The notes beneath the pieces are model-generated. The model saw only the letters and a list, made by a program, of their open reading frames with translations. It did no database searches and was not told the DNA's origin. A stretch of DNA of 64,000 nucleotides, taken from assembly GCA_046340895.1 (NCBI GenBank), contig JBKDSQ010000058.1:25095-89094 (forward strand). Direction: 5' to 3'. The DNA comes from Synechococcaceae cyanobacterium. Lineage in GTDB: Bacteria; Cyanobacteriota; Cyanobacteriia; PCC-6307; Cyanobiaceae. The translations under genes were made by a program, and so were the position numbers. Shown piece after piece: positions 6,144 to 57,942 of this stretch (position 1 is the stretch's first letter; each line of letters opens with the position of its first letter).

Positions 6144-6922
6144 ACCATCCCCCCAGGACGGTCAGAGCATTGCCAGCCCACCACGCGCGAGCGGCCGAGG
6201 CGCTCCATCCACCAGGGGGCAACCAGGGCGTGGGCCGATCCGGTGACGGGATCCTCCGGGATGCCGAGCCCGGGGGCGAAGAAGCGCAAGCGGTAGTCGG
6301 CCGCCTCCCCCGCCACCTGCGGGGCCGGGCCAGCCGGTGGCAGGGCCTGCATCGCCACCAATCCGTTGCGCAGCTCCTCCGGCAGCGCGTGCGCCAGAGC
6401 GGCCAGCTCCGCCAGGTCGGCCGTGGCCGGCAGCAGCGCCACGGCGTAGCCGAGCGAGGAACGCCAGAAGGCCTCGGCCCCCACGGCCAGCCGCCGCTGC
6501 AACAGCGCCTCAAGGGCGCCGGGAGAGGGAGCCTGCTGCAGGCCTCCAGCCGGAAGGGTGATGGCCCCCAGGCCCGGTCGCTCCGCGGCCGGCGCCCGCA
6601 ACAGCCGCACCGGCAACGGACCGCTGCGGCTGTGGAGCGCCAGCTCCTGGCCCGGCTCCAGCACCCCCCAGTACCCCAGCGCCAGCAGCGCCGCCAGCGT
6701 GGCGTGGCCGCACAGGGGCACCTCACAGCTGGGGGTGAACCAGCGCAGCAGCCAGCGCTCGCGCTCACGCAACAGGAAGGCGGTTTCCGATTGGCGCAGA
6801 CTGGCCGCCACCGCCTGCAGCCAGGTGTCGTCCACCGGATCCTCCAGCCGCACCACAGCCGCGCCGTTGCCGGCCCCGGGGAGCTCGCTGAAGGCCTCCA
6901 CATGCAGGGCGGCCAGGCTCAT
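5999..6922 (-). CDS. PhzF-family isomerase
   Basis: 307 aa. Contains GNGAAVV, SETAFL, CGHATLAAL and EDPVTGSAH blocks typical of PhzF. Its ATG overlaps the gpsA stop (ATGA). Confidence 0.85.
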   Translation of the reverse strand: MSLAALHVEAFSELPGAGNGAAVVRLEDPVDDTWLQAVAASLRQSETAFLLRERERWLLRWFTPSCEVPLCGHATLAALLALGYWGVLEPGQELALHSRSGPLPVRLLRAPAAERPGLGAITLPAGGLQQAPSPGALEALLQRRLAVGAEAFWRSSLGYAVALLPATADLAELAALAHALPEELRNGLVAMQALPPAGPAPQVAGEAADYRLRFFAPGLGIPEDPVTGSAHALVAPWWMERLGRSRVVGWQCSDRPGGMVCEAASSATIRLIGSGSLLWHGTLLARPRPCAAGSAASEAWQGLRCAG

Positions 6923-7839
6923 GCTTCCGCCTCCGCCCGCAGGTCGCGCTCCATCAGGGCCCGCACCGCCCGGGCCGGATCGATGCGGCCATCGAGCAGG
7001 GCCACCACCTGTTCGCTGATCGGCAACCGCCAGCCATGGCGGGCCGCCAGGGCCAGCACCGCCCGCGCCGTGGGGGCCCCTTCGACGGTGGCGCCCACCG
7101 CCGCCAGGGCCGTGGCCTCATCGGCCCCGCGGGCCAGTTGCACGCCGAAGCGGTGGTTGCGGCTGAGGTCGCTGTTGGCGGTGGCCAGCAGGTCGCCCAG
7201 GCCCGCCAGCCCGTACAGGGTGGTGCTCTGGCCGCCAAGGGCGCGCAGCACCAGACCCATCTCCGCCAGACCGCGGCAGAGCAGCGAGGCCTTGGCGTTC
7301 GCCCCCAGCCCCAGCCCATCGCTGACGCCGGCGGCGAGCGCCATCACGTTCTTCAGCGCCCCGGCGGCCTCGGTGCCGATCGGATCGCTGTTGGTGTAGA
7401 GCCGCAGGTTGGGGGCTGAGAGGGCGGCCTGCAGGTGGCGGGCCAGCCCCTCGTCGCCGCTGGCGACCACGCTGGCGGCGGGGAGGCCGCGTTCCAGCTC
7501 CGCCGCCAGGTTGGGGCCGCTCAGCACCGCCACGCCCACCGCCGGCAGCTGGCGGGCCCAGAGCTGGGCGGCGCTGCAGAGGCTTCCGCCGTCGATCCCC
7601 TTGCTGCAGCTCAACAGGGGCAGATCCGCCGGCCAGCCGGGGCCGAGCCGCTGTGCCAGGCCCTCCACCCCGGCCATCGACACGGCCGAGACGACCAGAT
7701 CCGCCCCATCCAGCAGCGGCTGCGGATCGCCACCGTCGCGGCGCGACCAGAGCCGCAGCTCATGGCCTCTGGCCTGCCAGAGATGCGCCAGGGTGCTGCC
7801 CCAGGCGCCGCGACCGAGCACAACGATGCGCAGAGCCAT
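6919..7839 (-). CDS. gpsA: NAD(P)H-dependent glycerol-3-phosphate dehydrogenase
   Basis: N-terminal Rossmann motif VLGRGAWGSTLA and conserved GALKNVMALAAG and NHRFG blocks. ATG at 7837-7839. Confidence 0.9.
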   Translation of the reverse strand: MALRIVVLGRGAWGSTLAHLWQARGHELRLWSRRDGGDPQPLLDGADLVVSAVSMAGVEGLAQRLGPGWPADLPLLSCSKGIDGGSLCSAAQLWARQLPAVGVAVLSGPNLAAELERGLPAASVVASGDEGLARHLQAALSAPNLRLYTNSDPIGTEAAGALKNVMALAAGVSDGLGLGANAKASLLCRGLAEMGLVLRALGGQSTTLYGLAGLGDLLATANSDLSRNHRFGVQLARGADEATALAAVGATVEGAPTARAVLALAARHGWRLPISEQVVALLDGRIDPARAVRALMERDLRAEAEA

Positions 7840-7905
7840 CAAGCCTCCCGGCGAGCCTCCTCCGGAGCTGGAGCGCTGCCATCATGCGCCATCTGCCGAC
7901 GCGCC

Positions 7906-8646
7906 ATGGCCGCTGCCCCCGATCCGCACGACTGGAGCCAGTGGCGGGGCCAGGCCCTGGTGGTGGGCCGCGGCGGCATTGGCCGGGCGCTGCTGGCGTC
8001 GTTGCCCCAGCACTGCCCGGAGCTGGAGATCTGGTCGGCGGGGCGGGATCCGCAGCAGCAGCGCCACCTCCAGCTCGACCTGGGCGACGACGCCAGCCTG
8101 GCGGCCTTCGCCGAGCAGGCGGCCCGGCACCTGCCCTGCCTGCGGCTGGTGATCCACACCAGCGGGCTTCTGCACGACGCCCAGCAGCAGCCGGAGAAGC
8201 GGCTGGCCCAGGTGCGGCGCGACTGGCTGGAGCGCAGCTTCGCGGTCAACGCCTGGGGGCCGCTGCTGCTCGCCCAGGCGCTGGAGGAGCGGCTGCCGCG
8301 CCAGCTGCCCTGCCGGTTCGCCAGCCTCTCGGCCCGGGTCGGCAGCATCGGCGACAACCGGCTCGGCGGCTGGTACGCCTACCGGGCCGCCAAGGCCGCC
8401 CAGAACCAGCTGCTCACCACCCTGGCGCTGGAATGGCGGCGCCGCCGGCCGCTCACCAGCGTGACCCTGCTGCATCCGGGCACCACGGCCACGTCCCTGT
8501 CGGAGCCGTTCCGCGGCGGTGTGGCGCCGGAGCGGCTGTTCAGCCCGGAGCAGGCCGCCGGGCACCTGCTGACGGTGCTGGCCGGACAGCGGCCGGAGAA
8601 CAGCGGTGCCTTCCTGGCCTGGGACGGCCAACCGATCCCCTGGTGA
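7906..8646 (+). CDS. Short-chain dehydrogenase/reductase (C-factor-like SDR)
   Basis: Real gene inside the long ORF 7435-8646. ATG at 7906 gives MAAAPD...ALVVGRGGIGRALL (cofactor-binding glycine motif) and YRAAKAA (YxxxK active site). Confidence 0.8.
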   Translation: MAAAPDPHDWSQWRGQALVVGRGGIGRALLASLPQHCPELEIWSAGRDPQQQRHLQLDLGDDASLAAFAEQAARHLPCLRLVIHTSGLLHDAQQQPEKRLAQVRRDWLERSFAVNAWGPLLLAQALEERLPRQLPCRFASLSARVGSIGDNRLGGWYAYRAAKAAQNQLLTTLALEWRRRRPLTSVTLLHPGTTATSLSEPFRGGVAPERLFSPEQAAGHLLTVLAGQRPENSGAFLAWDGQPIPW

Positions 8647-8681
8647 AACGCGGCGCAGCGGGCGGGGCCGCGGGGCCCGGC

Positions 8682-9095
8682 TCAGGCGGCGTGGGCGCGC
8701 AGCACCTCCAGCGGGATCACCTCCAGAGTGCTGGCTTCACAGGCCTCCAGGCGCACGGGCGGGGCCATGCCGTCTTCGTAGGCCTCCAGCCAGCGCGGGG
8801 CGCAGACGCACCAGGCATCGCCGGGGCGCAGGCCCGGGAAGCCGTAGGCCGGCGCCGGGGCGGTGAGGTCGTTGCCCTGGGCGCGGCTGTAGGAGAGAAA
8901 GCGCTCATCGACCACGCAGCAGACGGTGTGGCGGCCCAGGTCGGCGGGATCGGTGCGGCAGCTGCCATCGCGGAACCAGCCGGTCATCGGCTGGCAGCCG
9001 CAGACCTCGAGCGGGCCGCCGAGCACGTTGCGCGGGCCGCCCTGGGGTGCCGCCGCGGGGTGGGGATCGGTGGAGGGATCGGGGAGGGCGGCCAT
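8682..9095 (-). CDS. DUF2237 family protein
   Basis: ATG at 9093-9095. Sequence NVLGGPLEVCGCQPMTGWFRDGSCRTDPADLGRHTVCCVV...GNDLTAP...GLRPGDAWCVCAPRW matches the DUF2237 pattern I remember. Confidence 0.8.
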   Translation of the reverse strand: MAALPDPSTDPHPAAAPQGGPRNVLGGPLEVCGCQPMTGWFRDGSCRTDPADLGRHTVCCVVDERFLSYSRAQGNDLTAPAPAYGFPGLRPGDAWCVCAPRWLEAYEDGMAPPVRLEACEASTLEVIPLEVLRAHAA

Positions 9096-9230
9096 GGCCG
9101 GAGCGCGCACGGAACGGGGGTGAGTCTGCCGGCAGAAGGGCACAAAATGCGGCAGGGAGTTGACGGAATCCGGGGGGAGCGGGTTAAAGAACCTGTTACG
9201 ACACCCCGCGAGCAACCGCGCCGCCCCTTC

Positions 9231-9458
9231 ATGAGCTGGGATTTCACCGAGGACGCGGCCTTCCTGGCCCTCTGCGACGCCTACAAGGAGAGCGGTGAAC
9301 CCTCCGCGATGGAGTTCCTGGCCCACGGGGAGGGCGCCTTCCATTTCCAGGAGCTCACCCAGAACGCCGCCGGCGAAGGCCTCGACCTGTCGGACAGCAG
9401 CGATCTCGAGGAGTTCCAGCAGGAGGTGATCGACAGCCTGGAGCAGCTCTGCGACTGA
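9231..9458 (+). CDS. Small acidic hypothetical protein
   Basis: 75 codons starting at ATG 9231, inside the shadow ORF 7653-9458. Clean GC3-rich codon usage. No family recognised. Confidence 0.5.
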   Translation: MSWDFTEDAAFLALCDAYKESGEPSAMEFLAHGEGAFHFQELTQNAAGEGLDLSDSSDLEEFQQEVIDSLEQLCD

Positions 9459-9477
9459 CACCAGGCTGCCGAAGGGA

Positions 9478-9786
9478 TCAGCCGTAGTAGAAGGCCACCT
9501 CCTTGGCGCTCAGCCCGCTCCAGCCGGCGGCCTGCAGGCGGGCATCGAGGGTCTGCTGATCGAGGTGCTTGGCACCGCTGCGCACGATGCGGTTCCGCAT
9601 CGATTTGGTGACGCCGCTGCGGGGACGGGCGTTCTCCAGGTCCATCACCTCCCGGTAGAGGGCGAGCATCGGCGGCGGGATCGGGCTGCCATCGAGGTCG
9701 AGGCCGATGGCGATGGCGTCGTCGATGGCATTGGGTCCGGAGAGGGCCATGGGGCAGCCGGGGGAGAAACCCTCCGAGCCTGCCAT
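9478..9786 (-). CDS. Small conserved hypothetical protein
   Basis: Tail of ORF 9478-10062, downstream of the metH stop. ATG candidates at 9786 (MAGSEG) and 9750 (MALSGP). Good coding bias. Function not recognised. Confidence 0.5.
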   Translation of the reverse strand: MAGSEGFSPGCPMALSGPNAIDDAIAIGLDLDGSPIPPPMLALYREVMDLENARPRSGVTKSMRNRIVRSGAKHLDQQTLDARLQAAGWSGLSAKEVAFYYG

Positions 9787-9799
9787 GGGAGCCCGGTGC

Positions 9800-12700
9800 T
9801 CAGGCGCTGAAATAGCGGGCCTGGCTGTGCAGCGCCACAAGGGCGGTGGTGCTCTGCTCCGGTTCGAGCTGGTCGCTTTCGTCCATCGACAGGCCGATGC
9901 GCTCGGCACCGAGCCAGTCGAGCTGGGGGCGCGAATCGGCCACGTTCGGGCAGGCGGGGTAGCCGAAGGAATAGCGGCTGCCGCGGTAGCGCTGGGCGAG
10001 CACGTCGCGCAGGGGCATGGCGGCCGGATCGGCGAAGCCCAGCTCAGCGCGGATGCGGGCATGCACCCATTCCGCCAGCGCCTCGGCCATCTGCACGCCC
10101 AGGCCGTGGAAGTAGAGGTAATCGCTGTACTGGTCGGCGCGGAACAGCTCCTGGGCGAAGGCGGTGGCCTTCTCGCCCATCGTGACCGCCTGCATCGGCA
10201 ACACGTCGGTGGGGCGGGGGCTGCCGCTGGGGTCGCTGCGCAGATCGCGGTAGAAGTCGGCGATGCAGTAACGGTTGCCGGAGCGCTGGCGGGGCAACTG
10301 GAAGCGGCCCAGCTCGACGCCGGCCAAGGCCGGATCCGCGCCGGCCGCCGCTGCCGCCAGGGGGGCGGGATCGAACACCACCACGGCGTTGCCGCTGCGG
10401 CCGCAGGGGAAGTAGCCGTAGGCCACCCGGGGGGTGAGCAGCCGCTCGGCCTGGCAACGCTCCAGCCAGTGCTGCAGCACCGGCTCGGCCTTCTCGGCCA
10501 GCATCGCCTCGTACTCGGGGCGGCTCTGCTGTTGGCTCTTGCGCAGCTGCCACTGGCCGGCGAACAGCGCGTTGCGGTCGAGGTAGGCGATCACCTCCGC
10601 CAGGTCGATCTCGTGCTCCAGCAGCACGCGCGATCCCCAGAAGGGGGGAACGAGCGCGGGCTCCTCGGGAACCGCGGTCGAGCGGCTCTCGTCCGGGGGC
10701 GCCGGGCTGGCGGGGGGAGGGCTGGCTTCGGAGGGCTCTGCTGCCTCGGCTGGCACGGCTGGCTCGGCAGCCTGTGGAGCCTCCGCGACGCCTTCGGCCA
10801 GGCCCAGGCCCGGCGGCGGGCCGTCGAGGAAGCCCTGGCCGTCGTCCCAGCGGCCGGCGGCCTTGGCGTCCATCAACGCATCCATGAAACGCAGGTCGGC
10901 GAAGGCATCGCGGCCGTAGATCACCTGGCCGTCGTACACGGAGCGGCAGTCGCCATGGACGAAGCGGGGCGTGAGCGCCGCGCCGCCGAGGATCACCGGC
11001 ACGCGGATGCCCTGCTGGTTGAAGGTTTCGAGGTTGTCCTTCATGAAGGCGGTGGATTTCACCAGCAGGCCGCTCATGGCGATGCAATCCGCGTTGTGCT
11101 CGCGCTGGGCCTCCACGATCTGCTCGACACTCTGCTTGATGCCGAGATTGATTACCTCATAGCCATTGTTGGTGAGGATGATGTCAACCAGGTTCTTGCC
11201 GATGTCGTGCACATCGCCTTTGACGGTGGCGATCAGGAATTTGCCCTTACTGCTCGACTGACCCTCGATTTTCTCCATGTGGGGTTCGAGATGGGCCACG
11301 GCCGCCTTCATCGTTTCGGCGCTCTGCAGCACGAAGGGCAGCTGCATCTGGCCGGATCCGAACAGCTCGCCCACCACCTTCATGCCATCGAGCAGGAAGG
11401 TGTTGATGATCTGCAGCGGTGGATGGTTCTGGAGAGCTTCATCGAGCGCCGCCTCGAGGCCAATGCGCTCACCATCGATGATGTGCTGGGTGAGGCGCTG
11501 CTCCACCGGCAGATCCGCCAGCGAGGGTCCGCTGGCGCGGGCCTCCTTGGCGGACACCCCCTCGAACATCGTGGTGAGGGAGGTGAGCGGATCGAAAACG
11601 CAGATGTCCCCCTCGAAGCGGCGCTGGTCGTAGATCAGCTGGCGGCAGATCTGCTGGTGCTCGTCGCTGATCTTGGCCAGCGGCAGGATCTTGGCCGGGC
11701 TGACGATCGCCGCATCCATGCCCGCCTGGCAGCACTCGTGCAGGAATACGGAATTGAGAACAATCCGCGCAGCCGGCGAGAGGCCGAAGCTCACGTTGCT
11801 CACCCCGAGCACCACATGAACACCCGGCAGCTGCTGGCGGATCAGGCGGATCGCCTCCACGGTGGCAGCTCCGTTGTTGCGATCTTCCTCGATGCCGGTG
11901 GAGATCGGCAGGGCGAGGGGGTCGTAGAAGATCTCGTGGGCGGGGATGCCGTATTCGAGGATGTCGCGGTAGGCGCGCTGGGCGATCGCGAACTTGCGCT
12001 CGGCCGTGCGGGCCATGCCCTCCTCATCGATCGTGCCCACCACAATGCCGGCCCCGTAGGCCTTGGCCAGCTCCAGCACCTTGAAGAAGCGCTCGTCGCC
12101 GTCTTCGTAGTTGGTGGAGTTGAGGATGCACTTGCCGCCGGCCACCTTGAGGCCAGCCTCCATCTTCTGCCACTCGGTGGAATCGAGCATCAGCGGCAGG
12201 TTCACATTCGTGACCAGCCGGCTGACGAGATTGCGCATGTCACTGACGCCATCGCGGCCCACATAGTCGACGTTGACATCGAGAACATGGGCGTTTTCCT
12301 TCACCTGGCTGCGGGCCACCGCCACCAGGCCATCCCAGTCTTCCTCGTTGAGCAGCTCGCGCACCTTTTTCGAGCCGCTGGCGTTGAGGCGCTCGCCGAT
12401 GATCAGGAAGGAGTTGTCCTGCTGATAGGGGGTGACGCCATAGATCGAGGCGGCCGCGGGTTCGTAGTCGAGGGCGGGGCGGACATCGGCCGCTTCCGGG
12501 CTCCGTTCGCTGGCCTGGGTGCGGGAGCCGCGCACCAGGCGCGGCGCAGGCCGCAGCTCGCGGGCGAGCTCGGTGAGGCTGGCGATGTGGGCGGGGGTGG
12601 TGCCGCAGCAGCCGCCGATCACCTGCACGCCGAGATCCTCGACGAAGTGCATCAGCTGCATCTTCATTTCGGTGGGCGTGAGCCGGTAGTGGGCGACGCC

Positions 12701-13549
12701 GCCCACGTTCTCCGGCAGGCCGGCGTTGGGAATGCAGCTGACCACGAAGGGGCTGTGCTGGCTGAGGTAGCGCACGTGCTCCTTCATCTGCTCCGGGCCG
12801 GTGGCGCAGTTGAGGCCGAGCACATCGATCGCGAAGGGCTCCAGGATCGCCACCACCGCCGCGATGTCGGAGCCGACGAGCATCGTGCCCGTGGTTTCCA
12901 TCGTGACCGACACCATCAGCGGCAGGCGGGTGCCGGTGGCGGCGAAGGCGGCCTCGATCCCCTGCAGCGCGGCCTTGATCTGCAGAACGTCTTGGCAGGT
13001 TTCGACGATGAACAGGTCGACATCGCCGGCGATCAGACCCTCGGCCTGCTCCCGGAACGAAGCGGCCATCGTGTCGAAATCGATGTGGCCGAGGGTGGGC
13101 AGCTTGGTGGTGGGGCCGATCGAGCCGGCCACGAAGCGGGGATGGTCGGGGGTGCTGTAGGCATCGGCCATCTCGCGCGCCAGCTCGGCGGCGCGGCGGT
13201 TGAGGGCGAAGGCCTGATCCTCGAGGCCGTACTCCGCCAGCACGACCGAAGTGGCGCCGAAGGTGTCGGTTTCGATCACATCGCACCCCACCTCCAGAAA
13301 CTGACGGTGCACCGCCTGCACCGCGTCCGCCCGGGTGACGACCCGGTTGTCGTTGCAGCCCGCCAGGGCCGGGCAGCCGAAATCGGCGGCGGTGAGGTTC
13401 ATCTGCTGCAGCGACGTGCCGGTGGCGCCATCGAAGACGAGCACCGGCCGCTGGGGGCTGTGCAACCGCTCCAGAAAACCGGCGCGGGTAGGGCGGGGCC
13501 GCCCGCTCTCAGCCGGCGTCGCCAGGGTCCCGGGGGCGGAGAGCGCCAT
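9800..13549 (-). CDS. metH: Cobalamin-dependent methionine synthase
   Basis: 1249 aa with all modules visible: Hcy S-methyltransferase (GGCCGTTP), pterin-binding, B12-binding (GDVHDIGKN) and the AdoMet activation domain. Its ATG shares one base with the ilvE stop. Confidence 0.97.
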
Positions 13550-14466
13550 CAGTCGTCGATGCGGATGCGGGTGATCCAGTGTTCATACTCGGGATCCGCC
13601 CCTTCCGTGATCGATGTGAGGCGGTCGCGCAGCCGCTCCATGATCGGGCGGGGGCCGCTGAGATCGGTGGTTTCGATGCGGCGGATCGGTGTCACCCGCG
13701 CGGCGGTGCCGGTGAGAAACACCTCATCGGCAATGAACAGCTCGGTCTTGTCGACCGCGCGCTCCAGCACGGGGATGCCCATGTCGCGGGCCAGCTCGAG
13801 CACGCTGGCGCGGGTGATGCCTTCGAGGATGTCCTGGTCGACACCGGGGGTGATCAGCGCGCCGTCGCGCACCAGGAACAGGTTCATGCCGCTCGCCTCG
13901 CTCACCTTGCCGCGGCTGTTGAGCAGCAGGGCCTCATCAAAGCCGCTGCGCACCGCCTCCGTCTTGGCCAGGGAGCTGGTGATGTAGGCGCCGCTGATCT
14001 TGCCGCGCAGGGGAAGGGAGCGATCTTCCTGGCGGGTCCAGCTGCTGATGCGGCAGCTCACGCCTTCCGGGGAAAGGTAGTCGCCCAGTTCGATGCCGTA
14101 GATCAGGAAATCGCAGTGAATGTCGTGCAAACGCGGTGCGATGCCCAGGTCGGAGGTGTAGACGAAGGGCCGCATGTAAAACGGCGTAGTGGGACGATTC
14201 GCCTTCAGAAAGGCCCTCAGGGCGTTGTGGATCGTCTCCTCCGGCAGGTCCTGCAGCAGCAGCCGGGCGCTCTGGCTCAGGCGGCGGGCGTGGCGATCGG
14301 CCCGGAACAGCAGCACCTCCCCCGGATCGGCGGGATTGGGAATACCGCGCATGCCGCCGAAGGCCCCGGTGCCGTAGTGCAGAGCGTGGGTGGCCACCGA
14401 GAGGTTCGCCTCCGCGAAGGGCACGCACTCGCCGCCGAACCAGGCATAGGGGAGGAACTGGTGCAT
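13549..14466 (-). CDS. ilvE: Branched-chain amino acid aminotransferase
   Basis: ATG at 14464-14466 ([13 protein letters not shown]). Class IV aminotransferase blocks ([25 protein letters not shown]). Confidence 0.93.
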
Positions 14467-14519
14467 GGGGGGCGGAGAGGATCGCCCGATCTTCTCATCG
14501 CGGGCAGCAGGATGGGGGG

Positions 14520-17500
14520 ATGCACAGGCTTGCGGCGGTACCCGGCGACAGCGCGTTTCCCGCGGGTCCGCTTCCATATGTGGAGCAGCCGCCGGCGGAG
14601 GTGGTGCTGCTCAGCAGCGCCGACACCGACCTGCGGGCGATCGCGGCACTGCTGCGGCGCGAACCGGCTCGGCTGGGCGGCACGCTGCGGGCCCTGAACC
14701 TGGCGGCCCTCGGCGATCCGGCCGTGATCGACCACTACGTGGCCAGCACCCTCGAGCCCCCGCCGACCCGGATGGTGGTGGTGCGGCTGCTGGGGGGCCG
14801 CGGGCACTGGAGCTACGGCCTGGAGCGGCTGCGGGCCTGGGTGGCGCGGCCGGTGGCGGCGGGTCCCGCGCGGCAGCTGCTGTTGCTGGCGGGCACCGCC
14901 GAGGAGGAGGAGGCGCTGGCGGCCCTGGGCACGGTGCCGCCGGAGCTGGCCCTGGCCCTGGCCCGCGGGCTGCGGGAAGGGGGACCCCGCAACCTCGGCG
15001 CGTTCCTGGATGCCCTGGAGGCGCTGCGGAGCGGGGCGATGCCCGCGCCGCCGGCGGTGCAGCCCCTGGCCGATCCCCAGCCCCACGACTGGCGGCAGGA
15101 GGGCGGCCCGCGGGTGGGCCTGATCCTGTATCGCTCGCTTCTGCAGGCGGGGGACCTGGCCTTCGCCGAGGCGACGCTGGCGGCCCTGCGCGCGGCCGGC
15201 CTGGCGCCGCGGCTGCTGTGGGTCAGCGGCCTGCGCGAGGAGGCCGTGCAGCGCGGCGTCGCCGACCTGCTCGGCCGCGAGGGGGTGGAGGTGGTGCTGA
15301 CCGCCACCGGCTTCGCCTCGGTGCGGTTCGAGGAGGCGGGGCTGGGGGCACCGCTGTGGGAGCGGCTGGGGGTACCGGTGCTGCAGCTGCTCAGCAGCGG
15401 CCGGCCGCGGACGGCCTGGCAGGCCAGTCCGATCGGGCTGGGGCCGCTGGACCTGAGCCTGCAGGTGGCCCTGCCGGAGCTCGATGGCCGGCTGACCACG
15501 CGCGTGGGGGCGTTCAAGGAGGTGCGCGAGCGCAGCGATTCGCTGGCCACGGCGCTGCAGGAGCTGCGGCCCGATCCGGAGCGGCTGGCCTGGGTGGCGC
15601 AGCTGGCGGCGGCCTGGGCACGGCTGCGCACCACCGCCGCCGCCGAGCGCCGCGTGGCGCTGGTGCTGGCCAATTACCCCACGCGCAACAGCCGGCTGGC
15701 CAATGGGGTGGGGCTGGATACCCCCGCCAGCGCGGCGGCGATGCTGGGCTGGCTGGCGGGGGATGGCCACGATCTGGGCGATGCGCCACCGCCGGCGGAC
15801 GGCGAGGCGCTGATGGCGGCGCTCCTGGCGGGCCGCAGCAACGACCCCGAGAGCGGCCACCGCCCGGCGCTGACCCACCTGCCGCTGGCCACCTACCAGC
15901 GCTGGTACGAAGAGCTGCCCGCGGCGGGGCGGCAGCGGCTGGAGGCGGTGTGGGGTGCGCCGGAGCGCGATGGGGGGCTGGAGCGCGGCGGCTTCCCGAT
16001 TCGGGGGCTGCGCTTCGGCCAGGTGGTGGTGCTGGTGCAACCGGAGCGTGGCTACGACCGCGATCCCTCCCTCAGCTACCACAGCCCCGACCTGCCCCCC
16101 ACCCACGCCTACCTGGCCCAGTACCTGTGGCTGCGGGAGAGCTTCGGCGCGCACGTGGTGGTGCATGTGGGCAAGCACGGCAATCTCGAATGGCTGCCCG
16201 GCAAGGGGGTGGGCCTGGGGCCCGATTGCTTCCCGGAGTGGGCCCTGGGGCCGATGCCCCACCTGTATCCCTTCATCGTCAACGACCCGGGCGAGGGCAG
16301 CCAGGCCAAGCGCCGCGCCCAGGCCGTGATCCTCGACCACCTGACCCCACCGCTGGGTCGCGCCGGCCTGCATGGGGATCTGCTGGCGCTGGAGTCGCTG
16401 CTGGAGGAGTACTGGGAGGCGCGGTCGCTGGGGGGAGAGCGCGCGGAGGGGCTGCGGCGGGAGCTGGAGCGCCGGCTGGCGAGCCTGGAGCTGCCCCTGC
16501 CGCCGGGGGCGAGCGAGGGGGAGGCGCCGGGGGAGGCGCGGCTGGAGGCGGCCGACGGCTACCTGTGCGAGCTGAAGGAGGCCCAGATCCGGCTGGGGCT
16601 GCACACCTACGGCCAACTGCCGGAGCCGGAGAAGCGGGCGGAGCTGCTGCTGTGCCTGGCCCGGGCGCCGCTGCCGCGCCAGCCGGGGCTGGTGCAGGCC
16701 CTGGCGGCCGACCTGGGGCTGGCCCTCGATCCCTGGGCCGATCCGGAGGAGGAGCCCCTGGCGGAGGACGACCTGATCCGCCTGTTGCCGCTGGGACTGC
16801 CGAGCGCCGGCCGCCACCGGGGCGACGCGGTGGCGCTGCTGGAGCGGCGGGCGCTGGCGCTGGTGCGCGCCGAGCTGGGCCTGCCGCCCCGGCCGGAGGA
16901 CGGTCCGGCCTGGCCCTGCGGCGCCGCCACGGAGCAGGCCCTGGGCCATCTGCGCCAGCGGTTGCTGCCGCCGCTGCTGGCCTGCGGAGCGGCGGAGCAG
17001 CGCGCCTTCCTCGACGGCGTGGCGGGCCGTCGCATCGCCGCCGGGCCGTCGGGTGCGCCGACCCGCGGCCGGCCCGACCTGCTGCCGACGGGCCGCAACT
17101 TCTACAGCGTCGATCTGCGCGGCCTGCCGACGGAGGCCGCCTGGGACCTGGGCCGCCGCAGCGCCGAGCTGCTGCTGGAGCTGCACCGCCAGGAGGAGGG
17201 GGAGGATCTGCGCCGGCTGGCGTTGTCGGTGTGGGGCACGGCCACGATGCGCAACGGCGGCGAAGACATCGCCCAGGCCCTGGCGCTGATGGGGGTGCGG
17301 CCGGTGTGGGACGGCCCGACGCGGCGCATGGTGGACCTGGAGGTGATCCCCCTTTCGGCCCTGGGACGGCCGCGGGTGGATGTGACGCTGCGCATCTCCG
17401 GCCTGTTCCGCGACGCCTTCCCGCAGCTGGTGGCCTGGATGGACCGGGCCACGCGCCGCGTCGCCGCCCTCGAGGAACCGGAGGATCGCAATCCGCTGGC

Positions 17501-18281
17501 GGCGGCCGCGCGGCGCGAGGGCGACTGCGCCCGCATCTACGGCTCAGCGCCGGGGGCCTATGGCGCCGGCCTGCAGGGGCTGATCGACAGCGGCCAGTGG
17601 CAGGAGCGCGGCGACCTGGGCGAGGCGTTCCTGGCCTGGAGCAGCTGGCGCTACGGCGGCGACCCCGGCCGCGACGGCGACGCCATCGATGGGGAGACGA
17701 TCGCGGTGCAGGCCGACCGGGCGGGGCTGGAGCAGCGGCTGCGGCGGGTGCAGGTGGTGCTGCACAACCAGGACAACCGCGAGCACGACCTGCTCGATTC
17801 CGACGACTACTACCAGTTCCAGGGGGGCCTGAGCGCGGCGGCCGAGGCGCTGAGCGGCCAGCGGCCGCGGCTGTGGTTCGCCGACCATTCCCGCGCCGGC
17901 CGGCCGCGCCTGCACCGGCTGGAGAAGGAGTTCGACAAGGTGCTGCGCTCCCGCCTGCTCAACCCTCGCTGGATCGGGGCGATGGCGGAGCACGGCTACA
18001 AGGGCGGCTTCGAGATGGCCGCCAGCCTCGATTACCTGTTCGCCTACGACGCCAGCACCGGCCGGGTGCCGGACTGGAGCTACGGCGCCCTGTGCGACCG
18101 GTGGCTGAACGATGGTCAGGTGCTGGCGTTCCTGCGCCGCAGCAACCCCTGGGCGCTGCGGGACATGGCCGAGCGGCTGCTGGAGGCCAACAGCCGCGGG
18201 TTGTGGGAGGGGGCGAGCGCCGAGCAGCTGGAGCGGCTGCGGCAGCTGCTGCTCAGCAGTGAGGCGCTCACCGAGGGTTGA
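14520..18281 (+). CDS. cobN: Cobaltochelatase subunit CobN
   Basis: 1253 aa with CobN/Mg-chelatase H-like blocks throughout (HVGKHGNLEWLPGK, FIVNDPGEGSQAKRR, LHNQDNREHDLLDSDDYYQFQGG). Confidence 0.95.
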   Translation: MHRLAAVPGDSAFPAGPLPYVEQPPAEVVLLSSADTDLRAIAALLRREPARLGGTLRALNLAALGDPAVIDHYVASTLEPPPTRMVVVRLLGGRGHWSYGLERLRAWVARPVAAGPARQLLLLAGTAEEEEALAALGTVPPELALALARGLREGGPRNLGAFLDALEALRSGAMPAPPAVQPLADPQPHDWRQEGGPRVGLILYRSLLQAGDLAFAEATLAALRAAGLAPRLLWVSGLREEAVQRGVADLLGREGVEVVLTATGFASVRFEEAGLGAPLWERLGVPVLQLLSSGRPRTAWQASPIGLGPLDLSLQVALPELDGRLTTRVGAFKEVRERSDSLATALQELRPDPERLAWVAQLAAAWARLRTTAAAERRVALVLANYPTRNSRLANGVGLDTPASAAAMLGWLAGDGHDLGDAPPPADGEALMAALLAGRSNDPESGHRPALTHLPLATYQRWYEELPAAGRQRLEAVWGAPERDGGLERGGFPIRGLRFGQVVVLVQPERGYDRDPSLSYHSPDLPPTHAYLAQYLWLRESFGAHVVVHVGKHGNLEWLPGKGVGLGPDCFPEWALGPMPHLYPFIVNDPGEGSQAKRRAQAVILDHLTPPLGRAGLHGDLLALESLLEEYWEARSLGGERAEGLRRELERRLASLELPLPPGASEGEAPGEARLEAADGYLCELKEAQIRLGLHTYGQLPEPEKRAELLLCLARAPLPRQPGLVQALAADLGLALDPWADPEEEPLAEDDLIRLLPLGLPSAGRHRGDAVALLERRALALVRAELGLPPRPEDGPAWPCGAATEQALGHLRQRLLPPLLACGAAEQRAFLDGVAGRRIAAGPSGAPTRGRPDLLPTGRNFYSVDLRGLPTEAAWDLGRRSAELLLELHRQEEGEDLRRLALSVWGTATMRNGGEDIAQALALMGVRPVWDGPTRRMVDLEVIPLSALGRPRVDVTLRISGLFRDAFPQLVAWMDRATRRVAALEEPEDRNPLAAAARREGDCARIYGSAPGAYGAGLQGLIDSGQWQERGDLGEAFLAWSSWRYGGDPGRDGDAIDGETIAVQADRAGLEQRLRRVQVVLHNQDNREHDLLDSDDYYQFQGGLSAAAEALSGQRPRLWFADHSRAGRPRLHRLEKEFDKVLRSRLLNPRWIGAMAEHGYKGGFEMAASLDYLFAYDASTGRVPDWSYGALCDRWLNDGQVLAFLRRSNPWALRDMAERLLEANSRGLWEGASAEQLERLRQLLLSSEALTEG

Positions 18282-18307
18282 GGCCCGGCCGGTGGGCCGG
18301 AGCGACC

Positions 18308-18850
18308 TCAGAGGTTGAGGTCTTTCGCCATCGACTTGAACGGATCGATCGCGCCGGGCTTGGCCGCCGCCGGCGCCGTCTGGCTGGGCTGGGCCGTTTC
18401 CTCCTTCGGCTTGCGCAGGGCCGCCGGGGTGACGCCAGGGGCGTTGACCGCCACCGCCGAGCCCCGCTTGCGCTGATCCAGCTCCGCCTGGGTCATGGTC
18501 TGGGCGAAGGTTTTCTTCACCGGCTTGGGCACGCCATCGGTGAGCTTCACCTCCTGCTCCTCCGGGTTGATGCCGGCCAGGCCGGGGCTCATCTTCTCGA
18601 GGCGGGCCTCCATCGAGGCCACCTCCGCCACCATCTCCTTCTGGCCGGGGCTGTCGCTGGTGCCGGGGAAGGAGCGGCGGATCGTATTCGAGCGCCGCAT
18701 GAACTGAACGTCGCCGAGGCTCTTGGCGGAGTCGGCGTCAAGGAAGAAGGTGTCGTCCTTCTTGGTGGGGTTGGCTTCGGCGGCACTGCCGGCGACCTTG
18801 GGCCCGGAGGCGGCGCCGCCGTTGCCGCGGAAGCGATCGAACAGACCCAT
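18308..18850 (-). CDS. Hypothetical low-complexity protein
   Basis: ATG at 18848-18850 (MGLFDRFRGNGG). 180 aa, Lys/Ala/Pro-rich, with coding-like GC3 bias. No family recognised. Confidence 0.55.
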   Translation of the reverse strand: MGLFDRFRGNGGAASGPKVAGSAAEANPTKKDDTFFLDADSAKSLGDVQFMRRSNTIRRSFPGTSDSPGQKEMVAEVASMEARLEKMSPGLAGINPEEQEVKLTDGVPKPVKKTFAQTMTQAELDQRKRGSAVAVNAPGVTPAALRKPKEETAQPSQTAPAAAKPGAIDPFKSMAKDLNL

Positions 18851-22158: not shown

Positions 22159-22470
22159 TCAGCTCTCCCCCTCGCCGACGGGTTCCGTGGATGCCGTACC
22201 CAGGAAGGCCCGGTTCTGGGCCCAATAGATGTGGATCGGCTTTTCATTGCGCAGGAGATCCAGCACGCTCTGGAACATGGTGCTCGGGAGGTGCATCAGG
22301 ATCATGCCGCCGTTGTTGGCATCTGCCTCGAAGGCCATGCCGGGGTCGTTGAAGCGCACGTAGGCGATCGGTGTGCCCGTGGTGCCGTAGAGGGTGATCT
22401 GGGAACGGTTCGTCTGGTAGCCGCTTGGGCCGCCGTAAACGAGCACGTGGTAGTTGGTGACTTCGGCCAT
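22159..22470 (-). CDS. Hypothetical 103-aa protein
   Basis: ATG at 22470 preceded by AGGAG about 7 nt upstream (minus-strand sequence ...gcaggagaatcccATG). Coherent codon usage. No family recognised. Lies at the left border of the AT-rich island. Confidence 0.6.
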   Translation of the reverse strand: MAEVTNYHVLVYGGPSGYQTNRSQITLYGTTGTPIAYVRFNDPGMAFEADANNGGMILMHLPSTMFQSVLDLLRNEKPIHIYWAQNRAFLGTASTEPVGEGES

Positions 22471-22797
22471 GGGATTCTCCTGCCTCGAATGGCATGTGGC
22501 ACTGAATTCAGGCTAGAGCTGATAGGCGCGAATCAACGATGAACTTTGGTGACGGATACCACGACTTGCGATGTGAACATGAATGACAACAGCAAAGTCG
22601 GCAAGAAATCAGATGCAATGATCGGTAGGCTGGATCTCAATCTTTGGCCACGCGCAAGTTCGGCATTTCCCCGGGACAATCACAGCCTGAAAACGGAAAC
22701 ACATAGAAACCTCCATGTGGACGGATGCGAGCTGGTGGCAGGCGAGCAGGCCTCGCTGGCACTCCTCGTGAGGCATCCATCAAATCAGGCAGAGAGC

Positions 22798-23541
22798 TCA
22801 GCCCCCCACCACCAGGGCATCGGCAATCTCATAGCGCTCACCATTCTCCCCAAGACGGATCACAGAGAGATCACCCCGCCGCTGCACCAAAAGCTTCTCC
22901 GGTTGATCGGAAGCCACCGCTTTGCCATTCACGAACAGAAACTGCCGCTTCTGGCCCTCGGGATTGGTGACCACCACAGTGCCGCTTTTGTTGGCCCTGC
23001 GAATCACGCTGGCTTTGCACCAGGCGGCCTTACCACTGCTCCCAGACGCACAGGCCACTTCCCCTGAGGCGTGATAGGGAGTGCCGGGAACCAGAGCATC
23101 CTGGGAAGCCGGCACAGGAACGAGGGAGGTGCCGCTGATCCCCACACGAAGGCTGTAGCGGCTCGATTCCTTGCGGCGCGCCGCTGCACGCATCAGATAC
23201 ACCCGCACCGTTACATCGCCATCACTGGGCAGGAGGCCACGGAAGCTATTGTCTGAGCTGCTGCCGATGAACAGGGCGCTCTCCGCACCCGCCGCCATCA
23301 CGTTGAAATAGTTCTGGGGGTTGGAACCCTTCAGTTCCACCGTCAGGGTTTGACCAGCGCCTGCTCGCAGTTTGTAGTCGACGGTCTGGTAGCCCTTGAG
23401 CTGGCCTTGGAGCAGGGTGGAATCGGTGCCGACTCGAAAGTTGACCCTTTGGCTCTGGATTGCAGGCTGGGCAACGCCAATCGCAGCCGGGAGGGTGGTT
23501 GCCAGGAGGCAAGCGGCAACGGTGGCGAGCAATGCACGCAT
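22798..23541 (-). CDS. Exported hypothetical protein (island ORF D)
   Basis: ATG at 23539-23541 gives MRALLATVAACLLATTLPAAIGVAQP, a signal peptide. Beta-rich mature part with paired Cys (VACASGSSGKAAWC). Intermediate G+C. Confidence 0.65.
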   Translation of the reverse strand: MRALLATVAACLLATTLPAAIGVAQPAIQSQRVNFRVGTDSTLLQGQLKGYQTVDYKLRAGAGQTLTVELKGSNPQNYFNVMAAGAESALFIGSSSDNSFRGLLPSDGDVTVRVYLMRAAARRKESSRYSLRVGISGTSLVPVPASQDALVPGTPYHASGEVACASGSSGKAAWCKASVIRRANKSGTVVVTNPEGQKRQFLFVNGKAVASDQPEKLLVQRRGDLSVIRLGENGERYEIADALVVGG

Positions 23542-23687
23542 CGGACGCTTAGGAGTGGGGCTTTCGGAGACTAGCCCGCTTGCTCTCTGAAATACTAGCC
23601 GCCGCATATCAACTGACGCGAATGGTTAGTCACCATGCCTGGATACATTGAGGAGGATACATATTAAACCACCAAATGACAGATATT

Positions 23688-24092
23688 CTAACGGATAAGT
23701 TCAGCGGTTGACGCGGGCGTATGCGTCAATCCGCAGCAACGCCGGGCTGGAACAGGCGTGCGGCCAATGGAATAAAACACTGGTGTGCAAGCATGGAAGG
23801 AATAATCACCTTTCGGCCGCAATAATGCAATTATCGCAACGATGACTAGATAGTCAGGCTTAAGACGAAGGAAGAAGGTGGGTTCACCGCACTTTGATTT
23901 TCCAAAGCCCACGCAGAACTCGAATACCCATTGAAGATGACTTTCGAGTGGCGGGGAGGAAATCTGACTTATCGCTGCCATAGCATACAGTCCGGCGAAT
24001 ACGAGAAAGACATTTATCCCGATATACCAAGCCTCTCCGATTTCTTCACGATATAGCGGTTTTCGTGTGCGAATCCATTCATAGCCTTTCAT
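23688..24092 (-). CDS. Small membrane protein (island ORF C)
   Basis: 134-aa ATG ORF in the AT-rich region. Hydrophobic segments WYIGINVFLVFAGLYAMAAISQI and YLVIVAIIALL. No family recognised. Confidence 0.5.
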   Translation of the reverse strand: MKGYEWIRTRKPLYREEIGEAWYIGINVFLVFAGLYAMAAISQISSPPLESHLQWVFEFCVGFGKSKCGEPTFFLRLKPDYLVIVAIIALLRPKGDYSFHACTPVFYSIGRTPVPARRCCGLTHTPASTAELIR

Positions 24093-24267: not shown

Positions 24268-25563
24268 CTAGGCATGATCATCACCTACACCTAAACCTCT
24301 AAGAATCTCCCAGACAGGAAGAAATGCTCGCAGCGTGCCATATGAGTACATTGGCAAATCATCATGGTAATAAAGACCCTCCTTCATCTCGAACATGTGG
24401 CTGACATATCTTGAGTAAATGTCTCTTAGAAGTCCTGTTTGAAATATATCTAGATTGTGAGTGAACACGGAGCTGATCATCGATGTCTTAACTCCATACC
24501 AATCAGGGAGCGAGATCTCGCAGCGTACACTCTTCCCGTGACGGTTGAGAAAGCACTTATCAAACTCGTCCTTTACCGCTCTTATTGCGAAATCATGAAA
24601 GCCTGACTCCATAGATTCTAGCCAGAGATCTTTCTCATGCTCGTCTAACTGGTCGTAGATAGCTTGTATTTCAGTAACCCTACCCTCCCTAGTCTCGCCA
24701 AATATCTCTCCCTCATGGCAGGACCCTCGAAAAGAAGCAAAAGGATTGACGAAAACCGCATATATAGCATTTGGGTATGGGAAGATCTGGCCAATTTCAC
24801 CCCATTGTTGCGTCGCATAGACAAGAGAGTGGAAACCTTGTGCCTCCAAACGATGAGAAATCGCGCTCGAGATTGTGTTTAGGGCACTCTTGGAGTATTC
24901 GGGAATTTGTCCCCCGTTCTCTACATCTATGTCGATCCATCCCTTTACTTCTTCGAACTCTATTGCGACGACATACATTGAACGATCGTCAAGGAGGTTA
25001 TTCTCAAACCATTGATAGTACGACGCATCAGGATAGTAGATTTCTAGATTTATCTTGCTGTTCTCTTCCCTTGGGACAAGAGCGAGTGATGATTTTCCAT
25101 TTCCGAGCACTTCCTGCACATAAGCATCTCTAACTGTTCTGCTCTCCATTGGTGCAACAAGGACAGTATTGATAGCTTTTTCAGTAAGCCCCGGGAAGAT
25201 TGAGCAGAAGTGATTCGAATAAGCAAGCAACTCCGTGAAAGCCTGCCGCTCAGTTTGTTTCGACTTCTTTAACTCAATGATCGTGAGTCCAATGCATTCT
25301 GAGTTCCCGAATAAGTCTATTCGTGTTGTTGAGTCTCCAGTTCTTTCTAGCCTAAGCTCTCGTGCGGACAGAACCAGAGATTCAAGTCCAGCAACAATCG
25401 AGTTAATTCTTGTTTCCACAATTTGCTGCAATAGTATGCTTATCGGAGGGAATTCTTCCTTTGCCCATGAAATTGGCTCTCGTCGTCCACGAATGAGCCT
25501 GTGAAACGACTCTTTGTAATTCTCAAAGAGATGGTCTCTTAACTGGTTCTCGGTGTGTAACAT
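24268..25563 (-). CDS. PD-(D/E)xK nuclease-like protein, NucS/DUF1016-like N-terminal core plus unknown 300-aa region (island ORF B)
   Basis: 431-aa ATG ORF in the lowest-G+C part of the window. Residues about 5-120 read ENQLRDHLFEN...TRIDLFGNSECIGLTIIELKKSKQTERQAFTELLAYSNH, i.e. D83...E97-x-K99...Q107...Y115. This is the layout I know from NucS-C/YhcG-type endonucleases. The assignment is by eye only. Confidence 0.7.
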   Translation of the reverse strand: MLHTENQLRDHLFENYKESFHRLIRGRREPISWAKEEFPPISILLQQIVETRINSIVAGLESLVLSARELRLERTGDSTTRIDLFGNSECIGLTIIELKKSKQTERQAFTELLAYSNHFCSIFPGLTEKAINTVLVAPMESRTVRDAYVQEVLGNGKSSLALVPREENSKINLEIYYPDASYYQWFENNLLDDRSMYVVAIEFEEVKGWIDIDVENGGQIPEYSKSALNTISSAISHRLEAQGFHSLVYATQQWGEIGQIFPYPNAIYAVFVNPFASFRGSCHEGEIFGETREGRVTEIQAIYDQLDEHEKDLWLESMESGFHDFAIRAVKDEFDKCFLNRHGKSVRCEISLPDWYGVKTSMISSVFTHNLDIFQTGLLRDIYSRYVSHMFEMKEGLYYHDDLPMYSYGTLRAFLPVWEILRGLGVGDDHA

Positions 25564-25698
25564 GAAAGATCACTTTATTTTTTGAGTTTACGCCTATTGC
25601 CTAACGCCGAAGTTAATCTGCAAAGCCGGGTGCGCTGGACCGGAACTGCCGAGGAGGGATGGCCGGCTTTGTCATTTTCAACGTCACGTTAGACAACT

Positions 25699-26856
25699 CT
25701 ACTGAGATACCCGGACTGCTTCATCATACAGACCGTACGCCCGAAGTAGCCGCAGGGAGTCGCGACCGTCGATTAAGCAGTAGCGGCGCGACCTGCCCGG
25801 ATGCACCGCGAATGCGCGCAAGGTCGCACGCACAGGCGGGGTGATCTCGTGTGAATGCTGAACAAAGAGAACGTCGGCTGGCTCTTGTGCCAATCGGTAT
25901 ATCTGGTCGTTGTTCTTGCCGAGGTGATTCAGACCCATTGGAGCGAACCTCGCGGGACCCTTCAACAAGAATGCCCCGGAGACTCGGCGCCCGCCGAGAT
26001 GTAGATGAGCAGTGAAGTGGTCCGACTGTTCTCCGCCCCAGTCCTTGGTTACCGGGTCTCCAAGAATCCGCGCAAGGCTCACCTTGAACGCATTCTCCGA
26101 AACAAGCTTCATGGGTTCAACGGAATCCGGCACCGGTTCGTCATTGACCTTGTCGAACTCACAAAAGTCTTCGATGAAGTGCTCAAAAAAGTCTTGTGTC
26201 CACCAAATGATCTCGTCAGCCCAAGCGGGGTCCTCCGACCGTAACCACGGTGCCCCGATGATCAAGGGCCTGAAGTAGAGACTGTTCCCTTCCTTGCGGT
26301 TGAATACGGCGATGATGGACTGCAGGGCACCAGTAGTAAGCTCCGTGCGCGTGGTGTCAGCATGGATGTGCTTCGTTGAATACTCAAGTAGGACTCGGTA
26401 CTCCGTCGTCCCGGCTGGCTTGATCTCGCTCGAGGTCCGTTCCGACTCGTAAACAGCCCCGTTCGGAAGCAACTGCTCGGTCGAGCAGAACATCCTCCCG
26501 GCCCCAGCGCTGAGCAACTGTGCGAGCGTGGGAATCCTATTGACGTTGCAGAACGCCAGCATGACGTCCGTGTAGATGTGATCGAGACGGATAGATGCTT
26601 GCCACTCGGGATGGGGTGGCAGCCGAGTGGTCATTTCGTCGACGACCTTGATGCCGGCTGGCCCGAGCACGCTCTGGACTGCCCGGCGGTTCACGAAGCC
26701 GGGGTCGATTGTGTGTTCAAGCGGGAGCGCCCGCTTGGATGGTGATAGTTGCTGCCGGATGGGTGAGCCGTCTGTCATCGACCGTGTGGGTTGTCTAACG
26801 ATTATGGATAAATCGCGCTCAGTCGAGATCTTATCCGAAGTTGAACAAGCCGTCAA
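25699..26856 (-). CDS. Restriction-endonuclease-like protein with unknown N-terminal domain (island ORF A)
   Basis: 385-aa ORF from TTG 26856, or 359 aa from ATG 26778. The C-terminal block KDWGGEQSDHFTAHLHLGGRRVSGAFLLKGP...LFVQHSHE has an E/D...xK arrangement (E276, D279, K299, with later acidic E337) that resembles a type II/IV REase catalytic core. No P-loop or methylase motif. Confidence 0.65.
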   Translation of the reverse strand: MTACSTSDKISTERDLSIIVRQPTRSMTDGSPIRQQLSPSKRALPLEHTIDPGFVNRRAVQSVLGPAGIKVVDEMTTRLPPHPEWQASIRLDHIYTDVMLAFCNVNRIPTLAQLLSAGAGRMFCSTEQLLPNGAVYESERTSSEIKPAGTTEYRVLLEYSTKHIHADTTRTELTTGALQSIIAVFNRKEGNSLYFRPLIIGAPWLRSEDPAWADEIIWWTQDFFEHFIEDFCEFDKVNDEPVPDSVEPMKLVSENAFKVSLARILGDPVTKDWGGEQSDHFTAHLHLGGRRVSGAFLLKGPARFAPMGLNHLGKNNDQIYRLAQEPADVLFVQHSHEITPPVRATLRAFAVHPGRSRRYCLIDGRDSLRLLRAYGLYDEAVRVSQ

Positions 26857-56771: not shown

Positions 56772-57596
56772 ATGACCGCCTCCCCCCTCGCCGCTCCCGC
56801 CGCCACCCCCCGCGGTCACGACATCTGCATGTCCCTCCAGGACGTGACGATCTCCTACGGCAGTTTCGTGGCTGTGCGCGGCGTGTACATGGACATCCCG
56901 CGCGGGCGGGTAACGGCCTTCATCGGCCCCTCGGGATGCGGCAAGAGCACCGTGCTGCGGGCCCTCAACCGCATGAACGATCTGATTCCCGGCTGCAGCC
57001 TCAAGGGCCGGGTGCTGTTCGATGGCCAGGATCTCTACCAACCCCGCGTCGACCCGGTGGAGGTGCGGCGACGGATCGGCATGGTGTTCCAAAAACCGAA
57101 TCCCTTCCCGAAAACCATCTACGAAAACATCGCCTTCGGGGCCCGCATCAACGGTTTCCGTGGCGATATGGACGAACTGGTGGAACGCTCATTGCGCAAG
57201 GCAGCCGTCTGGGAGGAGTGCAAGGACAAACTGCAGGAAAGCGGCCTGGCTCTCTCCGGCGGCCAGCAGCAACGGCTGTGCATCGCCCGCGCCATCGCCA
57301 CCGAGCCGGAGGTGATTCTGATGGATGAACCCTGCTCCGCTCTCGACCCGATCTCCACCCTCAAAATCGAGGAGACGATGCATGAACTCAAACGCAGTTA
57401 CACGATCATCATCGTCACCCACAACATGCAGCAGGCCGTCCGCGTGGCCGACATGACAGCCTTTTTCAATGCCGAAGCGGTCGACGGCGGCACCGGCAAG
57501 CTCGGCTATCTGGTGGAGTACAGCGAAACCGAGAAAATCTTCAATGCCCCTGGCCAGCAGGCCACTCTGGATTATGTGAGCGGCCGCTTCGGCTAA
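56772..57596 (+). CDS. pstB: Phosphate ABC transporter ATP-binding protein PstB
   Basis: Walker [10 protein letters not shown], signature LSGGQQQRL, Walker B ILMDEP, and the PstB-typical C-terminus YVSGRFG. Confidence 0.96.
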
Positions 57597-57918: not shown

Positions 57919-57942
57919 AAAAAAACCGGCCCGAAGACCGGT
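57919..57942 (-). terminator. Rho-independent terminator downstream of tRNA-Ser
   Basis: Minus strand reads ACCGGTC-TTCG-GGCCGGT, a 7-bp stem (one G-U pair) with a tetraloop, followed directly by TTTTTTT. It starts 7 nt after the tRNA 3' end. Confidence 0.65.

Follow-up and report, generated by a model that had tools for sequence, protein, structure and literature searches.

The question raised by this locus is whether two adjacent nuclease-like genes make up one defence module or came together by chance. The genes, here called A and B, lie head to tail in a 64,000-nucleotide stretch of contig JBKDSQ010000058.1 from a metagenome-assembled genome of a Synechococcaceae cyanobacterium (hereafter the window, meaning that whole stretch), and a preliminary description of the sequence had treated them as a pair of orphan genes forming a single undescribed defence module. 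We consider it highly probable that A and B are independent of each other. Our preferred explanation, in which we place roughly even confidence, is that they are unrelated accessory genes, independently acquired, each encoding a self-contained single-protein unit, and that both are candidate single-gene defence nucleases. The two families are widespread, strongly conserved and horizontally mobile, and they recur in defence and toxin-antitoxin islands as well as in cargo positions of mobile elements.

The open reading frame (ORF) listing confirmed the positions, minus-strand orientation and head-to-tail arrangement given in the preliminary description (B at 24268-25563, the A frame at 25699-26856), with a spacer of 135 nucleotides. 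All sources label both genes hypothetical. They are not orphans: B has 344 homologue clusters, none of them named (best E 1e-227), and A has 929 clusters at 90% identity (best E 1e-191), with 1,129 representatives at 50% identity in an exhaustive profile search. The two genes are as follows:

24268 to 25563, minus strand: gene B, an ORF for a stand-alone protein of 431 amino acids, comprising a helical N-terminal region, a NucS-like PD-(D/E)xK domain and a family-specific C-terminal region of ~250 amino acids
25699 to 26778, minus strand: gene A, for a stand-alone protein of 359 amino acids; its true start is M27 of the 385-amino-acid mechanical ORF at 25699-26856

Independence of A and B

We assembled 34 B loci (32 from one genome per species plus 2 more) and 82 A loci (80 from metagenomes plus 2 more), with flanks of up to 10 kb on each side, and searched them by tblastn. 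Not one of the 34 B loci encoded A, and not one of the 82 A loci, of which 39 extended at least 1.5 kb downstream, encoded B. Immediately after A, the gene varied in length and family or was absent, and no recurrent neighbour emerged, the largest cluster of flanking ORFs being present in only 6 of the 116 loci. A Pfam scan of two genes on each side in 24 non-redundant B loci and 16 A loci found heterogeneous nearest neighbours, with many housekeeping genes and scattered restriction-modification (R-M), GmrSD, integrase, IS110, PIN and HTH genes. The two proteins are likewise unrelated to each other, an hhalign comparison of A with B returning a probability of 0.5%. The A-B pair was found again solely on near-identical contigs of the same population, which for that reason do not count as independent evidence.

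Several candidate partners or relatives were considered and set aside. A 382-amino-acid gene upstream of B in locus L002 proved unrelated to A, a 210-amino-acid gene downstream of A in L003 was unrelated to B, and a 269-amino-acid gene after B in L143 was unrelated to the ORF of the same length in the window. DUF6650 was rejected as a partner of A, as it occurs beside A in two lineages only and is missing from the window. No small antitoxin-like neighbour was conserved for A or B, the toxin-antitoxin genes nearby being complete pairs of other families. Among the 96 genes nearest to B, only a few belonged to methyltransferase families, and the families listed for A included none.

Base composition also separates the two genes. 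The window averages ~70% GC, and its GC content per kb drops to 0.455-0.57 at 23-27 kb, with the lowest value, 0.455, at 24-25 kb; the locus is thus the most AT-rich part of the window, as first described. The GC content at third codon positions (GC3) was 0.70 for A and 0.45 for B, compared to 0.47 for the 134-amino-acid ORF that follows B and 0.84-0.94 in the host genes around them, and these differences indicate that the low-GC island is not a single compositional unit. A profile of 200-nucleotide steps located the change from A-like to B-like composition within the A-B spacer. The disparity in GC3 points to separate acquisitions. The earlier view of acquired foreign cargo stands insofar as both genes are foreign accessory genes. 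The spacer itself holds the following feature:

25596 to 25697, minus strand: an imperfect hairpin of ~100 nucleotides (minimum free energy -39.7 kcal/mol, z -1.86) lacking a U-tract

Seven of 200 shuffled sequences equalled the stability of this fold, and the hairpin may be a relic of an insertion junction. Both genes sit between uvrC and a photolyase-related gene, downstream of uvrC; most simply, this position is a variable site that took up two insertions separately. No fetched locus carries the flanking genes of the window; uvrC lies ~5 kb from A in one A locus (L082). The island edges bear no integrase, tRNA or att-like repeats, and an Rfam search of the island gave no match. Consistent with the preliminary description, no island ORF matched a methyltransferase, P-loop or helicase family in Pfam, NCBIfam or PADLOC.

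These results bear directly on the proposal that A and B constitute a single two-gene defence module, whether sensor and effector, nuclease and regulator, or toxin and immunity protein. The shared strand, the short spacer, the lack of a canonical terminator in between and the maintenance of the pair on several contigs of one population are what such a module would predict. Against them stand the failure of the two families to appear together in any of 116 independent loci, which largely refutes the proposal, the gap of 25 points in GC3 and the occurrence of each gene alone in many phyla. We therefore regard a two-gene module as very improbable.

Domain organization of B and A

The AlphaFold model of B (pLDDT 78, pTM 0.78) was compared to the Protein Data Bank (PDB) using Foldseek. 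The top matches were all PD-(D/E)xK proteins, namely NucS/EndoMS (5gke and 2vld; probability 1.0, E 1e-3), the AdnAB nuclease, SfsA, Card1 and Shedu SduA, and they spanned just ~120-160 columns of the protein. The segment concerned is the following:

25039 to 25377, minus strand: PD-(D/E)xK nuclease core of B, residues ~63-175, supported by the Foldseek PDB matches and by invariant E69, D83, E97-L-K99 and Q103

These residues are invariant in 40 homologues with identities down to 24%, and they include D83, E97 and K99, the three that the preliminary description had singled out. On the same nuclease residues we observed sub-threshold hidden Markov model (HMM) matches to HSDR_N, NucS and PDC-S11, as well as a match to phrog_30092 (function not known; E 3.5e-7). 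The NucS-like core proposed earlier is upheld by both the Foldseek and the sub-threshold HMM matches. B had no significant match in Pfam, NCBIfam, PADLOC or the PDB sequences, and its remaining ~250 residues gave no reliable match. Together, the model and its structural matches support residues 63-175 as a core fold of the PD-(D/E)xK superfamily with the conserved catalytic D...(D/E)xK motif. B carries an intact PD-(D/E)xK active site of NucS type and is probably a nuclease.

B nevertheless differs from the systems that it most resembles. With NucS/EndoMS (PF01939, NCBIfam NF003270), the archaeal and actinobacterial mismatch endonuclease, it shares the C-terminal PD-(D/E)xK fold and the D...ExK motif within residues ~63-175. 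Its score against NF003270 is 12.9 bits, confined to residues 80-146, compared to a cut-off of 216 bits; there is no Pfam NucS match. Unlike NucS/EndoMS, B lacks the NucS N-terminal architecture and carries ~250 extra, unmatched C-terminal residues, and its spread is patchy and horizontally mobile, a pattern not expected of a lineage-wide repair gene. B also resembles Shedu (SduA) and other single-protein PD-(D/E)xK defence nucleases, in that one chain of ~400 amino acids combines a PD-(D/E)xK domain with family-specific regulatory regions and occurs on its own in defence islands. The fold similarity to SduA (8ps5) is weak, with an E value of 0.054, and neither Pfam nor PADLOC gave a significant DUF4263/SduA match to B, whose nuclease domain lies N-terminal to the unmatched region. 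The sole PADLOC match of B was a weak one to the candidate system PDC-S11 (E 0.02-0.04), while A had none. One Rhizobium island carries both a B homologue and, at a separate position, a true Shedu gene, which further indicates that the two are distinct. Judged by its sequence, B is neither a NucS orthologue nor Shedu.

Turning to A, the 385-amino-acid ORF is over-extended, since nearly all homologues and the NCBI gene call are ~359 amino acids long and start at M27. The supposed N-terminal extension contains a promoter-like site:

26828 to 26856, minus strand: promoter-like site, TTGACG-17-TAAGAT with 9 of 12 consensus matches, lying upstream of M27

Such sites are no commoner in the region than in shuffled sequence, and we regard this one as a consensus match only. 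The model of A (pLDDT 89.7, pTM 0.86) contains two recognizable segments:

26239 to 26493, minus strand: OB-fold (oligonucleotide/oligosaccharide-binding) beta-barrel, residues ~96-180, from the Foldseek PDB and BFVD matches
25738 to 26097, minus strand: conserved C-terminal alpha/beta module, residues ~228-347, probably restriction-endonuclease-like

The top Foldseek PDB matches of A were OB folds, namely the anticodon-binding domain of lysyl- and asparaginyl-tRNA synthetases, RPA and an OBody (E ~1e-2 each), and a phage single-stranded DNA-binding protein (SSB) matched in BFVD (E ~1e-2). Residues 96-180 are accordingly modelled as an OB-fold domain, the matches being consistent with one another and each of them weak. 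There is no sequence-level relationship to SSB/RPA proteins or to OB-containing nucleases, and the structural matches have E values of ~1e-2 or worse. The large subunit of exonuclease VII (XseA), an OB-containing nuclease, gave low-probability full-length matches to A in BFVD at ranks 40 and 47. A differs from SSB, RPA and exonuclease VII in its domain order and in its C-terminal module.

A diverse alignment and a set of 88 homologues showed E228, G249-E250, D253, K273, Q292, R295, Q307-H308 and D337-G338 to be invariant in A. The residues E276, D279 and K299 named in the preliminary description correspond to E250, D253 and K273 in the 359-residue numbering, and are thus among them. In BFVD, A matched three proteins annotated 'Restriction endonuclease' (probability 0.44-0.89, E 7e-3 to 0.15, the best over 152 columns) and several RPB5 entries. 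The N-terminal domain of RPB5 has a restriction-endonuclease-like fold. The C-terminal module of A is probably restriction-endonuclease-like in structure. A conserved leucine is present two positions before K273, where the canonical acidic residue is expected; for this reason the nuclease assignment stays at probable, and A could at most be a PD-(D/E)xK variant with a relocated acidic residue. The earlier division of A into an N-terminus of about 260 amino acids that could not be placed and a restriction-endonuclease-like core thus gave way in its first half, where the OB fold was found, and received weak structural support in its second.

The same data bear on whether A is a nuclease at all, the alternative being that it is an OB-fold nucleic-acid-binding protein whose C-terminal module has some other catalytic or regulatory role. 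The top 50 PDB matches of full-length A, among which OB folds dominate, contain no nuclease or PD-(D/E)xK structure; A has no Pfam, NCBIfam, PADLOC, PHROG or PDB-sequence match; and the invariant Q307-H308-x-H310 would suit other metal-dependent chemistry, which together with the leucine before K273 would be expected of a non-nuclease. Such an interpretation has to contend with the restriction endonuclease and RPB5 matches over ~150-160 columns, and with an order of elements, alpha (E228), beta (D253 at its start), beta (K273) and alpha (D291-Q292), that is the order of the PD-(D/E)xK core. We judge a non-nuclease A to be unlikely, and favour a restriction-endonuclease-like module.

Mrr-like and type IV restriction endonucleases offer the nearest comparison for this module, which has a glycine-rich loop with acidic residues followed by a beta-hairpin ending in the invariant lysine, and no methyltransferase partner; we take this to resemble the Mrr motif arrangement. 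A differs in having no Pfam Mrr_cat match, in the leucine that replaces Q/E two positions before the lysine, and in an N-terminal part that has the OB fold in place of a winged helix or a recognized reader of modified bases. The module (profile positions 198-350) is shared on its own with P0372 (517 amino acids), P0380 (625 amino acids), P0316 and P0349, whose N-terminal regions differ from that of A and are unannotated. The presence of the same module behind unrelated N-termini suggests that it is portable, as is typical of an effector domain. Six A-family proteins of ~520 amino acids (P0174, P0188, P0213, P0229, P0237 and P0240) have a conserved N-terminal extension of ~160 amino acids with no Pfam match. 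Pfam searches of 10 variant A architectures and all 44 members of A3 (E up to 10) gave nothing consistent, and profile searches of the PDB sequences with A1, A2 and A3 returned nothing meaningful.

No cognate methyltransferase of a type I-III R-M system was found beside A or B. Searches with Pfam and PADLOC likewise found no type IV reader domain (SRA, EVE/YTH, McrB-N, GmrSD DUF262 and similar), and PADLOC-DB v2 gave no significant match to a component of Gabija, Lamassu, Wadjet, Hachiman or other named systems. The preliminary description was therefore correct that neither protein fits a named defence system. Literature searches on NucS-like or DUF91 defence genes returned nothing relevant, and neither family was found described.

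Genomic context and distribution of the two families

Each of the five annotated A contexts contains defence or toxin-antitoxin genes (5/5, a raw tally):

A context 1: NACHT, type I R-M and GmrSD, then A, then M78/DUF4411
A context 2: type I R-M and GmrSD, then A, then a pair of OLD-TOPRIM ATPase and UvrD, Gabija type
A context 3: DUF6650, then A, then type ISP R-M and SLFN_AlbA_2
A context 4: PemK, Fic, HicA, DUF2971 and Shedu
A context 5: DUF6650 and an IS110 fragment

DUF6650 lies directly upstream of A in two lineages (L003 6479-6952; L004 51-524; L138 7417-7923). It serves as the ThsG effector in type VI Thoeris (bioRxiv 10.64898/2025.12.03.692087), and no TIR gene was noticed beside DUF6650 at the A loci. 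The DefensePredictor supplementary tables list a DUF6650 protein of 299 amino acids (PMC13092281), which is unlike A. The contexts of B were more mixed than those of A:

B context, Rhizobium gallicum plasmid pRgalR602a (L135, record 5143-18381): DUF2971, Shedu, a pair of ATPase and UvrD helicase, SLATT and nucleotidyltransferase, and an XRE regulator
B context, Pseudomonas syringae group: KAP NTPase and ParE/RelB
B context, L002: cargo position beside an integrase, in an element that has a primase of P4-alpha type

The island in L135 is dense in defence genes, and its B homologue is a distant one. By definition, the P4 psu-int hotspot is flanked by psu and int (PMC9122126). As no psu was detected in L002, we refer to B in that element as integrase-adjacent cargo only. 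PADLOC models matched some of the nearest neighbours of both A and B.

B of this cyanobacterium is 72-76% identical to homologues from Pseudomonadales, Halopseudomonas, Victivallales and Ozemobacteraceae (hit list; L005-L007, L016), and 58% identical to a homologue in a metagenome-assembled genome of the archaeon Methanogenium. Such identity across phyla indicates recent horizontal transfer under strong purifying selection. The conservation of B is unusually strong for a gene scattered over such distant lineages.

We asked whether these contexts would instead suit accessory nucleases of DNA repair or recombination, with B acting as a NucS-like mismatch or flap endonuclease and A as an OB-fold nuclease that processes single-stranded DNA ends. 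The closest structural relatives of B are indeed repair nucleases (NucS/EndoMS and AdnAB), A joins an OB fold to a nuclease-like module as some repair exonucleases do, uvrC adjoins the genes in the window, and many loci of the families lie amid housekeeping genes. The patchy spread and high identity across phyla, the foreign composition, the presence of uvrC near A in just one other locus, the large shortfall of B from the NucS cut-off and the recurrence of both families in defence and toxin-antitoxin islands all argue otherwise, and we consider a repair role for one or both genes improbable.

We hold a similarly low opinion of the view that A and B benefit a mobile element rather than its host, as selfish or addiction-type genes such as a solitary toxic nuclease or an exclusion function. 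The integrase-adjacent position of B in L002, the homologues found on conjugative or mobilizable plasmids and the frequency of toxin-antitoxin neighbours are in keeping with this view, whereas the window contains no integrase, tRNA or att-like repeats at the island edges, no small antitoxin-like partner is conserved, and the families are rare on plasmids and phages.

Our preferred explanation, independent candidate defence nucleases, has points against it as well. The matches behind the nuclease fold of A are weak (E at least 7e-3), and the leucine near K273 departs from the canonical motif. Four other B loci have plain housekeeping surroundings, and defence genes are lacking from the vicinity of many B loci and of several A loci scanned for nearest neighbours, all of which lie amid housekeeping genes. 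Plasmids seldom carry either family (3 and 2 of 72,556 records), nor do viral contigs (2 loci each), and sequenced phages almost never do.

Other features of the window are of lesser consequence for A and B. One ORF adjoins B:

23688 to 24092, minus strand: low-GC ORF of 134 amino acids downstream of B, which other pipelines annotate but which is uncertain as a gene

None of the fetched loci contained a homologue of it, Pfam, NCBIfam, PADLOC and PHROGs gave no family match, and it is not a conserved partner of B. Beyond it, an ORF of 269 amino acids (22798-23607, minus strand) has an intermediate GC3 of 0.685, and GC content is already lowered from ~22.2 kb (region 22159-23607), suggesting that the variable region may be a mosaic extending past the island as delimited here. 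GC content dips elsewhere in the window at 11001-12000 (0.62), 57001-58000 (0.60) and 61001-63000 (0.62-0.65). ARAGORN placed two tRNA-Ser genes in the 57-58 kb dip, of which the one at 57950-58036 alone reached the Rfam gathering score.

Candidate defence roles

The claim of an undescribed defence candidate thus holds for each gene singly, both families occurring near defence or toxin-antitoxin genes, and fails for the two as a module. We assign a defence-nuclease role to each gene tentatively, with slightly less than even confidence. Under this proposal each protein would act alone as a nuclease on invading DNA. In B, the N-terminal helices and the ~250-amino-acid C-terminal region would act in sensing or gating, with DNA cleavage left to the PD-(D/E)xK domain. 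For A, binding of single-stranded or otherwise exposed nucleic acid would fall to the OB fold, which would also bring the restriction-endonuclease-like C-terminal module into position to cleave it. Since no methyltransferase is present, self-protection would depend on cutting that requires activation or modification.

Of the two, A is the stronger candidate: its OB fold is joined to a portable C-terminal effector module, its family numbers more than 1,100 clusters at 50% identity and is covered by no curated model, and it is repeatedly found in positions flanked by R-M, GmrSD, Gabija-like and Shedu genes. B would make another such system, in which a nuclease of NucS type is coupled to a novel sensor region at the C-terminus. 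It is possible, though our confidence falls well short of even, that one or both families are genuine single-gene systems against phages or plasmids that have so far escaped description.

The locus cautions that two foreign genes adjoining in one genome need not be one system; here, the co-occurrence test and the composition of each gene told A and B apart. Both families lie outside the coverage of Pfam, NCBIfam and PADLOC, and confirmation of either gene would enlarge the set of single-protein nuclease defence systems by one or two widespread families. If the proposal for A is true, its C-terminal module would represent a new portable effector domain, and the OB fold would be implicated in sensing.

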